Positions 4,306 through 6,660 of a stretch of DNA of 14,549 bases are shown here, one piece after another (position 1 is the first letter of the stretch; every line of letters starts with the position of its first letter). The DNA is from a virus, in IMG/VR virus record IMGVR_UViG_3300033402_000312; one strand, given 5' to 3'. Both the position numbers and the translations under genes were made by a program. Under the pieces are notes generated by a model. The model searched no databases. It was not told the origin of the DNA and worked only from the letters and a program-made list of their open reading frames with translations.

Positions 4306-6660
4306 TCATGTAACAATCTTCGCGAAGGTGACGGTCTTGCCTACCGGGATGTTCGGGTTCTCCCAGTCCTTGCCACCCGGTATCGCCGGGACAGTGCGCG
4401 GGTCAAACACGGGCTGCCCCGTGCCCTTGCCGTCCTCCGGGTCGGGGCGCACGACCGGGTTGTAGAGCGTGGGCAGGCTGCTGTAGTTCTTGCGGATCAT
4501 CGCCTGCGCAGACAGGTAGCGCGTGTCGCCGGGTGCGAGAAGCTCCACGGTGAAGTCCTGCTGCAAGATGATGCCGCGAGGCATCTTGTACACCACGTCG
4601 CTGATGACCATGATGTCGCCGTTGGCGCGGAGGATCAGGTCACCGTTCTGGACGATGGGCGTGCGCGTCATGTAGCTCCGGGAAGTCCTCGTGGTCTTGA
4701 TGCCGCCCTCGTCGAGGATGCGGTTGAGCGCGGAGTCGGGAGGGACGAACAGGAAGTCGTACGGGCCGATGTAGCCGCCCACGAAGCCGGTCTCGAAGCA
4801 CACCGGGCAGCCGGTCTTGGGCTGCTGGCTGCCGAACACGCACCCGCACTGCTCGCCGCGCCACATGCGGAAGAAGCACAGCGCAGGCTCCCCCGTCGTC
4901 TGGAAGAGGTACTCGTTGCGGCGCACCATCTCCTCGTAGACCCAGTCGATCTTGTCGATCTCCTGCGTGTTCCTGACGTCGGTGCCTTTTTCTCCGGGCT
5001 TGTGAAGCTCGCCTTTCTCGCCGATGGGCACGACAGTATTCCCGCTCCAGCACGCCTTCCCGTTACGGCGCACGTACAGGAACATGTTAGGCACGGACAC
5101 GCAGAACACATCCCCGTGGTACTCCACATTCTCGATTTTCCAATTAGCGGTGTAGCCGGATTTTCTGGTATGGCGGGACACAAAATATCCTTGGCGGCAG
5201 GAAATTCTGCGCCCTTGGATTTCATCTTCGCCAGCAAGCTTAATATAGGTCGTGCTGGAGCTACCCATCTTCTGCACGATCTCAGTCAAATGATCAGCCA
5301 AGCGCCTTGATACAGTAAACGTCTGCTGTGTTCCCGACCCATCCCCGTTGGCAGCGCCGTCTCCCGCGTAATAATACTTCCAGAAAACCTCAAGTTGGCG
5401 GGGCGTAGCCTCGCGGATTTCCTCCGGCACAAATTTTTCGTGCGCATGTCCGAACTGGCGCAAATACTCACCCATGGCTACCGAATGCACCACCAATCCT
5501 CTGTCATCCAGCGTTACACAACCCCCAAATAACCTAGTCAATAGGGCGGCGTACAGTTCCCTAGAACCGCGAACGTCGCACGGCTGAGAAATTGTAAAGC
5601 CCTTGTTGTTGTGCAGCACGGAGCCTTCCGCCAAGTACATACCCATGAAGGCACAAAAGTCGTCTCCAGTCAGGACGATTTTGCGCGGTACCGGTCCAAA
5701 AATACGGCGGCGCTTGCCGCCAAAAACTTTTTCCTGAATCTCCTTTCCCGTCCACACAGACGTTGTTGCTATGCCTGTATTGGTAGAACTGGCTCCGGCC
5801 AAACTTGCCGCCTCAATTACATGTTCTTGTTTGTTCCTCGGTCTCTTTCTGCTGCTGATTCTGTCCGGCAAAGAATTGACCAGCATCCTGTGATTAGGAG
5901 TAACTAACTGGTCGAGGCTTTGCCCGTGTACGTGTACCAAGTCTCCGTCGTATCGCGCCTTGAAGAACCCATCGGCTTGTTGCCACTCGAACTCTTTGGT
6001 TTGAATTTTGCGGGTGGCAAACAGGTCGTCCTTTTGGCATTCTTGGAACAGCTTCCATCCGTCCTTCGTAAAGACCTCGGTGTCGTCAGAGTAGCAATAG
6101 TAGGTGCGGTTGAACGACGCGTAGATGTCAACATAGTTCGTAAGCTTGTTGAACACCGCCTGCCAGACCTGCACGCCGTTGTAGTCCGTCACGTTGACAT
6201 TGCCGGTGTTCGCCTGCGCGGTGTCGGACACCGCCCCGCCCGGAGCCAAGGTGTTGTCCACCAGCATCGTCACGGTGCGGTCGAAGCTATTGACGGACGT
6301 CGGTCGGCGAACCACGCCATCGGTGACGATCTGCACATCATCCGGGCTGTTGGACACGGTGACACGCCCCGATTTGACGGTAGTGTACGGCGTCTCAGGG
6401 AGCCGGATCACCCACTGTCCCGTTTCTCCTTTTTCAATGAAATCTTCCGGCTTGACTGTGTACGTTGTTTGCATCAACGTCGTCATATCTCGGTAGAAAT
6501 GCCCCCTCCAGTTCGCCGCGATCCGCTGCCAGTTGGAGGGATGATCGAACGCCCGGTACACATTGTAACCTTTGACGGCCCCGGGGTCCTCAACCCACCA
6601 GAGGTCATGACTTGAGGTTATACCCGAATCAATCAGAAGTAGGTTAGTGACCATGCTCAT
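4306..6660 (-). CDS. Intein-containing protein (784-aa precursor). The extein is ~434 aa of unknown, possibly virion, function.
   Basis: Uninterrupted ORF whose ATG overlaps the TGA of the upstream mini zinc-ribbon gene (ATGA). The extein halves (188 aa N-terminal, 246 aa C-terminal) flank an internal segment with intein and LAGLIDADG hallmarks. Confidence 0.8.
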   Translation of the reverse strand: MSMVTNLLLIDSGITSSHDLWWVEDPGAVKGYNVYRAFDHPSNWQRIAANWRGHFYRDMTTLMQTTYTVKPEDFIEKGETGQWVIRLPETPYTTVKSGRVTVSNSPDDVQIVTDGVVRRPTSVNSFDRTVTMLVDNTLAPGGAVSDTAQANTGNVNVTDYNGVQVWQAVFNKLTNYVDIYASFNRTYYCYSDDTEVFTKDGWKLFQECQKDDLFATRKIQTKEFEWQQADGFFKARYDGDLVHVHGQSLDQLVTPNHRMLVNSLPDRISSRKRPRNKQEHVIEAASLAGASSTNTGIATTSVWTGKEIQEKVFGGKRRRIFGPVPRKIVLTGDDFCAFMGMYLAEGSVLHNNKGFTISQPCDVRGSRELYAALLTRLFGGCVTLDDRGLVVHSVAMGEYLRQFGHAHEKFVPEEIREATPRQLEVFWKYYYAGDGAANGDGSGTQQTFTVSRRLADHLTEIVQKMGSSSTTYIKLAGEDEIQGRRISCRQGYFVSRHTRKSGYTANWKIENVEYHGDVFCVSVPNMFLYVRRNGKACWSGNTVVPIGEKGELHKPGEKGTDVRNTQEIDKIDWVYEEMVRRNEYLFQTTGEPALCFFRMWRGEQCGCVFGSQQPKTGCPVCFETGFVGGYIGPYDFLFVPPDSALNRILDEGGIKTTRTSRSYMTRTPIVQNGDLILRANGDIMVISDVVYKMPRGIILQQDFTVELLAPGDTRYLSAQAMIRKNYSSLPTLYNPVVRPDPEDGKGTGQPVFDPRTVPAIPGGKDWENPNIPVGKTVTFAKIVT
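5047..6096 (-). mobile_element. Intein of ~350 aa with an embedded LAGLIDADG-type homing endonuclease domain, inside CDS 4306..6660.
   Basis: It begins ...NRTYY|CYSDDTEVFTKDGWKLF (block A Cxx(x)DTxV after the extein). Block B is TPNHRML. The two LAGLIDADG-like motifs are FMGMYLAEGS and YYYAGDGAANGDGS. The C-terminal block is ...VPNMFLYVRRNGKACWSGN|TVVP, a terminal Asn followed by Thr+1. Codon positions were checked against the sequence: Cys codon at 6094-6096, Asn codon at 5047-5049. Confidence 0.7.

Follow-up and report, generated by a model that had tools for sequence, protein, structure and literature searches.

IMGVR_UViG_3300033402_000312, a viral record of IMG/VR comprising 14,549 nt (hereafter the window; all coordinates refer to its full length), carries on its minus strand a gene coding for a 784-amino-acid precursor into which a 353-residue segment is precisely inserted in frame. 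The overall best explanation, in which we place considerable confidence, is that this segment is a self-splicing and mobile homing intein residing in the neck stopper gene of a jumbo myophage related to phage Tunturi_5. The precursor comprises a 188-residue N-extein, the intein, and a 243-residue C-extein, and its spliced form (residues 1-188 joined to 542-784) would be a protein of 431 amino acids and 48.2 kDa. The open reading frame (ORF) of the host gene, 2355 nt in length, is intact in the window, and six public contigs, two with lengths in the 0.2-1 Mb range, carry a gene call for an identical 784-amino-acid protein. The G+C content of the window is ~59%, and nearly all its long ORFs lie on the minus strand. 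The coordinates of all the features discussed are collected in Table 1.

A first-pass annotation of the window had already pointed to this ORF and its intein-like insert, and the hallmarks it listed are all found in the translation: a Cys following ...NRTYY, the block A motif CYSDDTEV, the block B motif TPNHRML, two LAGLIDADG-like motifs, and a C-terminal Asn (the insert ends with ...WSGN) followed by Thr at the +1 position. Of the limits it gave for an insert of ~350 amino acids, 5047-6096, the latter is exact, while the former falls three codons short of the actual end at 5038. The extein of ~434 residues it proposed (1-188 + 539-784) was likewise right in its N-terminal part and has to be corrected to 542-784 in the C-terminal one.

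Boundaries and identity of the intein

The position of the insert was established by comparison with homologues of the host protein. A search of 5.8 billion proteins with the spliced extein gave 162 homologues, the best 120 of which are 355-524 amino acids long, with query coverage up to 100% and identity up to 84%. All 13 homologues that were aligned run contiguously across the ...RTYY/TVVP... junction (the slash marks the insertion point), with no residue lost or gained and a gap corresponding exactly to Cys189-Asn541, which fixes the boundaries of the insert. In the precursor, ...FNRTYY is followed by CYSDDTEV..., and the end of the insert, ...YVRRNGKACWSGN, by TVVPIGEK. Tyr188 is invariant in the alignment with the 13 insert-free homologues and the next Thr nearly so; the insert-free junction was extracted from 54 loci. 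According to the first-pass annotation, an intein would be called into question if homologues shared the segment as a conserved structural domain; in the homologues compared, exactly this segment is missing. Extra residues present in two longer homologues, P0068 (524 amino acids) and P0119 (506 amino acids), were considered as possible mini-inteins and rejected, as they lie elsewhere in the N-terminal domain and are devoid of junction residues.

The insert belongs to a large family. An exhaustive search for its relatives gave 9414 proteins at E <= 1e-3, while a word-index search under-reported the family, with only 69 matches. Conservation was counted in 232 further full-length copies of the intein extracted from the relatives retrieved. 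The intein of the window has all the catalytic and junction residues that were counted, and these are kept in 90-99% of the relatives. The two LAGLIDADG motifs, FMGMYLAEGS (MGMYLAEG, with Glu157) and YYYAGDGAA (YYAGDG, with Asp246), are accompanied in the endonuclease domain by Gln171 and Lys221, which are Gln in 217 and Lys in 218 of the 232 relatives, respectively. Of 233 residues at +1, the first position of the C-extein, 131 are Ser, 78 Thr, and 23 Cys (232 in total).

Searches with the insert as a single sequence gave little, as is most evident with Pfam, where the whole protein and the insert alone both gave only matches to intein-related families that stayed below the gathering thresholds (for the insert, 19.1 against 22.5 for LAGLIDADG_3, 18.5 against 35.8 for Intein_splicing, and 13.2 against 28.4 for Hint_2). 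Taken at face value these scores weigh against an intein; they are explained by the limited sensitivity of a single-sequence query. Among the relatives, PF14890 is annotated on some and LAGLIDADG_3 on many. In the PDB the insert alone had one weak match, the intein AceL NrdHF, and the 49-residue C-terminal segment of the insert comprising blocks F and G had none among PDB sequences. A comparison with the Hint and intein families, proposed in the first-pass annotation, becomes convincing once the whole family and its fold are considered. A profile built of 17 related inserts matched the archaeal V-ATPase inteins TliVMA and PhoVMA (E 3e-17), PI-PkoII (2e-15), and AceL NrdHF (3e-10), as well as PI-MtuI and PI-SceI. 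An AlphaFold model of the intein, built on the alignment of its relatives, reached a mean predicted local distance difference test score (pLDDT) of 88.4 and a predicted template modelling score (pTM) of 0.89. In a Foldseek search of the PDB with this model the top 16 matches, including TliVMA, PI-SceI, PI-PkoII, and PI-PfuI, were all full-length LAGLIDADG inteins (E down to 1.5e-16, template modelling score about 0.55); ranked below them were mini-inteins, Hint domains of Hedgehog proteins, and I-Tsp061I, a free LAGLIDADG enzyme. The secondary structure of the model between intein residues 140 and 300 fits the paired alpha-beta-beta-alpha-beta-beta-alpha fold of LAGLIDADG enzymes. With the E values of 3e-17 for the profile and 1.5e-16 for the fold, a chance match was judged far too unlikely. 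Residues and model both support reading the insert as an intein in which a homing endonuclease with two LAGLIDADG motifs, of predicted activity, is embedded.

Several metagenomic proteins of 1300-3700 amino acids (P0199, P0210, P0227, P0245, and others) contain two to five copies of inteins of this family. In two further relatives, P0127 and P0128, Cys1 is replaced by Gly and the terminal Asn by Asp, and these are probably splicing-dead inteins.

Predicted splicing and homing

The 88-kDa precursor, once translated and folded, would excise the intein in four steps. An N-S acyl shift by Cys189 at the Tyr188-Cys189 bond would be followed by transfer of the thioester to the hydroxyl of Thr542, cyclisation of Asn541 would free the intein, and an O-N shift would restore a normal peptide bond between Tyr and Thr. 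The expected products are a 48-kDa stopper, of an architecture identical to that of the insert-free homologues, and a free, basic intein of 40 kDa. In the model of the extein the junction sits inside a strand predicted at pLDDT of about 93. Since the insert splits a strand predicted with such confidence, splicing should be needed before assembly of the neck ring; the unspliced precursor would be unable to form this ring, which seals the head after filling and provides the docking point of the tail, and splicing would be essential for the formation of infectious particles.

A His at the penultimate position (G:6) and an Asp at position F:4 of block F, whose class 1 pattern is V-Y-D-L-x-V, are canonical in class 1 inteins, though not obligatory, and class 3 inteins are characterized by a W-C-T triplet at positions B:12, F:4, and G:5. 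The intein of the window has neither of the two class 1 residues: the penultimate one is Gly352 (Gly in 219 of the 232 relatives) and the F:4 position is taken by Cys332, i.e., Cys520 of the precursor (Cys in 213). Both departures count against a straightforward self-splicing element, and the splicing chemistry may depart from the textbook class 1 route on their account. With Met71 at B:12 and Ser351 at G:5 (Ser, Cys, or Thr in the relatives), the triplet reads M71-C332-S351. Cys332 was equated with F:4 by the motif pattern (VFCVSV) and spacing, not by residue-level structural superposition; it lies 21 residues before the terminal Asn, the same distance as that inferred for the MchDnaB1 class 3 intein between Cys124 and the last residue, 145.

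Class 3 inteins lack an N-terminal nucleophile (PMC7664689; PMC7891396), and since Cys1 is nearly invariant in the family, the intein was filed as class 1 on the strength of its residues. A class 3-like route, in which the N-terminal junction would come under attack from Cys332 instead of Cys1, giving the first branched thioester, or in which the two cysteines would cooperate or form a regulatory disulfide, is considered unlikely. The block F Cys, standing where class 1 inteins usually have Asp, the Met at B:12, the Ser/Cys/Thr at G:5, and the lack of the penultimate His all fit such a route, and they resemble the 'MCT' triplet and the missing His residues of AceL NrdHF, the closest solved mini-intein by sequence and a class 3 intein whose splicing was demonstrated by experiment (PMC7891396). 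However, the retention of Cys1 in 227 of the 232 relatives argues for its use, class 3 being defined by the absence of such a nucleophile, and the equivalence of Cys332 and F:4 has the basis given above. A bolder idea, to which we give little credence, is that this large and mostly phage-borne family, with Cys1, the block F Cys, and the penultimate Gly all near-invariant, represents a mechanistic intermediate between classes 1 and 3, or that a reversible disulfide makes its splicing conditional; if the latter were true, head closure and tail docking would be tied to redox conditions inside the infected cell.

Compared with known systems, the intein has a two-motif LAGLIDADG domain between the N- and C-lobes of a Hint domain, as do PI-SceI (Sce VMA1), TliVMA, PhoVMA, PI-PkoII, and PI-PfuI. 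These full-length class 1 inteins are its best fold and profile matches and also have Cys1, T-x-x-H, the terminal Asn, and a +1 nucleophile. The identity to them is only 10-15%, though, and the window intein differs in the penultimate Gly instead of His, Cys instead of Asp at F:4, and Thr at +1; moreover, they reside in ATPases or polymerases, and the intein studied here in a phage virion protein. The closest sequence relatives outside the stopper gene are inteins of phage portal proteins (PORT of mycobacteriophages and actinobacteriophages, and the metagenomic P0191, P0193, P0200, P0204, P0206, and P0207), with 42-52% identity over the whole intein and the same signature of C1 ... GN followed by S/T/C. 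Their host is also a virion protein of the head-tail junction, but the protein and the insertion site are different. A penultimate Gly is also found in the class 1 intein of another host protein, gp51 (the recombination directionality factor, RDF) of mycobacteriophage Bethlehem, which was shown experimentally to splice, and to do so faster than its Gly-to-His mutant (PMC5050341).

The AceL NrdHF split intein (PDB 6zgq; profile E as given above), of probable phage origin, has SPNHRM in block B where TPNHRM is found here, with Met at B:12 in both, and, like the window intein, it has a block F Cys and no His at F:13 or G:6. The two differ in that AceL NrdHF begins with Ala1, occurs naturally as a split intein, and no longer has an endonuclease, whereas the window intein is a single contiguous element with an invariant Cys1 and a retained endonuclease domain. 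As a splicing tool, a compact intein of this kind, with Thr+1 and a penultimate Gly, could also be of modest practical value.

The intein is sparsely distributed. A scan of IMG/VR gave 80 loci, only one of which besides the window (L061) contains the insert; there it occupies the same codon of an intact ORF, and the identity to the window is 80% for the intein, 62% for the N-extein, and 75% for the C-extein. In L002 an intein 73% identical to that of the window is also located at the same codon, in a frameshifted host gene. The closest extein relatives of the window (80-84% identical) and of L061 (P0027, 90%) are intein-free, and in a neighbour-joining tree of the exteins 34 leaves descend from the node at which the window and L061 meet. 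The G+C content of the intein is 0.52, compared to 0.57-0.64 in the exteins, and at third codon positions it is 0.61 compared to 0.76-0.91. Purifying selection acts across the intein, with 0.18 nonsynonymous (pN) against 0.77 synonymous (pS) differences per site; for the endonuclease domain, omega is about 0.09. An endonuclease that is conserved, a patchy occurrence, and a base composition foreign to the host gene make together the usual signature of a homing element. The empty site reads ...CGC ACN TAC TAY/ACN GTN GTG CC..., with the first and second codon positions nearly fixed and the third one variable; in the empty allele of L003 the junction is TACTAC/ACCGTCGTGCCC. The released endonuclease would cut this conserved site in a co-infecting intein-less relative, and repair of the break would copy the intein in. 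The patchy occurrence is the pattern that homing produces, and the comparisons lend indirect support to this origin, with cleavage of the site as a predicted activity. Recent horizontal transfer among the three intein-bearing lineages was ruled out, the synonymous sites of the intein being saturated.

Homing could nevertheless be a matter of the past. An intein that still splices, with an endonuclease no longer active, would be a fixed, vertically inherited passenger, and the presence of the intein in only three lineages, at 73-80% identity, with no recent transfer visible and synonymous sites saturated between the copies, speaks for such a passenger. This is held to be improbable, because neither of the catalytic acidic residues has been lost, nor have the conserved Gln and Lys, and the endonuclease domain is under the purifying selection given above, and because intein-free sequences are the nearest ones to both intact bearers, so that vertical descent alone would call for many independent and precise losses. 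Still further from the evidence, and very improbable, is the idea that the insert has decayed to a remnant that no longer splices and persists as a tolerated extra domain, or that the host gene is a pseudogene. The sub-threshold single-sequence Pfam scores and the frameshifts in L002 could be read in this way, but the L002 contig has many other genes fragmented too, which points to assembly errors, and the ORF is intact in the window, in the six contigs with the identical protein, and in L061, with all the splice-junction residues kept. Besides, the insert interrupts a strand predicted with high confidence, between an invariant Tyr188 and a near-invariant Thr, where a 40-kDa domain is unlikely to be tolerated. 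An active homing intein remains the preferred explanation.

The host protein as a probable neck stopper

The first-pass annotation had left the extein without a name, and sequence searches are indeed nearly silent on it; it is now assigned, with moderate confidence, to the neck stopper proteins. Pfam gave nothing for the extein, and its sequence profile found nothing among PDB sequences even at E 10. In PHROGs there were only faint matches to 'virion structural protein' (10 of 57 members), and the only families matched by the full protein, 'thymidylate synthase' and 'ribonucleotide reductase', were found solely via the intein segment and so are uninformative on the host protein. The only annotated relative is gp322 of the 308-kb Tunturiibacter phage Tunturi_5, 46% identical and labelled 'minor tail protein'. 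This near-silence of the sequence profile and PHROGs tells against the stopper assignment, as does the fact that the folds of stopper, terminator, and tube proteins are related (PMC12929629).

The assignment is founded on the fold, the tetra-cysteine loop, and the gene position. The extein model (pLDDT 76.5) has a beta-barrel core in common with solved stoppers. Its Foldseek matches comprise the connector of phage Douge (E 5e-4), neck chains 8q01_S and 8qkh_A of phage 812, the T4 portal-neck-tail complex, the T1 stopper-terminator, and the phiKZ neck, and further ones are the FCWL1 and Pam3 connectors, the phiCD508 neck valve, and P1 gp7. On the minus strand the host gene lies in the order 317-codon adaptor-like gene, GIY-YIG endonuclease gene, host gene, 176-codon gene, 632-codon terminator-like gene, and sheath gene, i.e., between the genes of a myophage adaptor and a tail terminator as annotated by the depositors of Tunturi_5, whose gene names do not come from experiments. 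This order agrees with the stopper assignment, and it bears out the structural neighbourhood described in the first-pass annotation, with the N-terminus of the sheath nearby and the adjoining 632-amino-acid protein being the 'tail terminator' homologue.

In the stopper of phage 812, gp97, three elements are added to the beta-barrel core, namely a zinc-binding loop C-P-C-Xn-C-X-X-C, a hairpin with a gating role, and a beta-sandwich on the outside, and its tetra-cysteine loop was stated to be absent outside Herelleviridae (PMC12886913). The C-extein has a tetra-cysteine loop as well, whose four Cys are invariant in 57 homologues, and by analogy it is a likely zinc site. The Herelleviridae-specific loop may thus occur also in this unrelated jumbo-phage family, the residue-level equivalence of the two loops being a candidate one. 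A low-confidence hairpin (extein residues 290-303) with an invariant Glu-Gly-Gly could be the gating loop. Like 812 gp97, T4 gp14, phiKZ gp99, and stoppers of the SPP1 gp16 type, the protein combines a beta-barrel core with a gene flanked by adaptor-like and terminator-like ones. It differs from them in having no detectable sequence similarity, in the form of the loop (C-G-C-X10-C-P-V-C and not C-P-C-Xn-C-X-X-C), and in a beta-sandwich that is N-terminal and FN3-like; none of them has been reported to carry an intein.

That the host is a neck or tail virion protein of another kind (for example a tail terminator, a tail completion protein, a protein decorating the neck, or a 'minor tail protein') is a less favoured alternative. 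It would agree with the label given to the only named homologue, in Tunturi_5, and with the moderate scores of the fold searches among folds related to one another. Yet several matches are explicitly connector or neck-valve chains and one is a T1 stopper-terminator chain (9jlf_C, 8hdr_A, 9gb5_G, 9l0e_A), and the two phage 812 chains (227 and 268 residues) are compatible with the stopper, a protein with termini that are resolved in the virion only. The tetra-cysteine loop together with an external beta-sandwich is, moreover, the architecture described for the phage 812 stopper, and a separate terminator-like gene is present downstream and an adaptor-like one upstream. A neck stopper, i.e., a head-completion protein with the role of T4 gp14 or phage 812 gp97, is accordingly regarded as the probable identity of the host.

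A structural protein was described in the first-pass annotation as what may be an unusual intein target. It is indeed an uncommon one, but not new as a class: portal, minor capsid, and tape-measure proteins of phages are published intein hosts (bioRxiv 10.1101/2025.01.02.630785; PMC5050341), and the closest relatives of the window intein reside in portal proteins. The literature searched, the coverage of which was incomplete, contained no description of an intein hosted by a neck, stopper, or head-completion protein. The element is therefore of a known kind, in a host protein for which no earlier report was found. It adds a neck stopper, a protein without nucleotide-binding activity, to those invaded by homing inteins, and supports the view that intein sites follow local sequence conservation and not enzymatic function. 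The assignment also gives a probable function to a family of >160 'hypothetical' jumbo-phage proteins. A domain 41% identical to the C-extein, i.e., the stopper core, forms the C-terminus (residues 2305-2540) of the 2541-amino-acid protein P0216, which implies that in some phage the stopper domain is fused to a very large N-terminal region.

Features of the window and gene neighbourhood

Table 1. Location of the host gene, the intein with its motifs, and neighbouring genes in the window
Feature	Position	Strand	Description
Host gene	4306..6660	-	784-amino-acid precursor, 88.2 kDa, plus stop codon; from ORF list and translation
N-extein, residues 1-188	6097..6660	-	FN3-like beta-sandwich domain and first strands of core domain; ends ...FNRTYY
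Intein, Cys189-Asn541 of precursor	5038..6096	-	353 amino acids, 39.9 kDa, isoelectric point 8.8
C-extein, residues 542-784	4309..5037	-	starts with Thr+1 (TVVPIGEK...); predicted beta-barrel core of neck stopper-like domain
Block A, CYSDDTEVFTKDGW	6055..6096	-	Cys1, predicted N-terminal splice nucleophile; Cys in 227/232 related intein domains
Block B, LVTPNHRMLV	5878..5907	-	intein Thr66, His69, Met71; Thr/Ser in 225/232, His in 230/232, Met at B:12 in 156/232
First LAGLIDADG motif, FCAFMGMYLAEGS	5620..5658	-	predicted catalytic Glu157; Glu/Asp in 226/232, next Gly in 231/232
Second LAGLIDADG motif, FWKYYYAGDGAA	5350..5385	-	predicted catalytic Asp246; Asp in 227/232, Gly in 228/232
Blocks F and G, GDVFCVSVPNMFLYVRRNGKACWSGN	5038..5115	-	Cys332 in 213/232, penultimate Gly352 in 219/232, terminal Asn353 in 221/232
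Tetra-cysteine loop, CGC-X10-CPVC	4798..4848	-	extein Cys252, 254, 265, 268; four Cys invariant in 57 homologues
Tail sheath gene, N-terminal 297 of 1222 codons	1..893	-	L004 gene table, Phage_sheath_1C match; starts MALFTSYAPPGVYTTEV...; runs off left end of window
632-amino-acid downstream neighbour	1335..3233	-	37% identity, E 3e-119, to Tunturi_5 gp324 'tail terminator'
Free-standing GIY-YIG homing endonuclease gene, 243 amino acids	6824..7555	-	PHROG 314, E 3e-24; between adaptor-like and host genes
317-amino-acid upstream neighbour	7639..8592	-	43% identity, E 3e-91, to Tunturi_5 gp319 'head-tail connector' (adaptor)
Adenylate-kinase-like kinase	8871..9437	-	upstream cluster
262-amino-acid DNA-binding-like protein	10008..10796	-	upstream cluster
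DUF1599 'nucleotide modification associated' protein	11269..12063	-	upstream cluster
589-amino-acid AAA+ ATPase	12484..14253	-	PHROG 'ATP-dependent protease', E 9e-42; Pfam AAA in L004 gene table

The intein is accompanied by a free-standing endonuclease gene of the GIY-YIG type, located between the adaptor-like and the host genes. This gene is absent from the close relative L003, and homologues 43-57% identical to it are found at the same position in >20 related IMG/VR loci; more distant copies are often located directly downstream of the stopper gene. In L002 a 308-amino-acid ORF with an HNH-like motif (11984..12910, plus strand of that contig) lies downstream of the stopper gene, and the ~26 C-terminal residues of its product (RHIRWHVKRGIGSPACALC...) are 54% identical to the C-terminus of the GIY-YIG protein of the window, which suggests a DNA-binding module common to different endonucleases of this locus. 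In jumbo phages this conserved neck gene appears to be a hotspot of selfish endonucleases.

The 632-amino-acid terminator-like protein has an extra segment, residues ~182-241, with a weak signature of a carbohydrate-binding module (CBM_5_12); the Tunturi_5 homologue lacks this segment. Further upstream, beyond the neck genes, there is a nucleotide-metabolism cluster (8871..12063, minus strand), with a counterpart at 5112..8442 in L003. A 276-amino-acid gene of L003 with a comparable place in the gene order matches HMUDK_hel, the helical domain of 5-hydroxymethyldeoxyuridine (5-hmdU) DNA kinase, and is a candidate counterpart of the 262-amino-acid ORF of the window. NUDIX and NAMPT/NAPRTase genes are found further upstream, and the upstream genes hint at DNA base hypermodification and NAD salvage.

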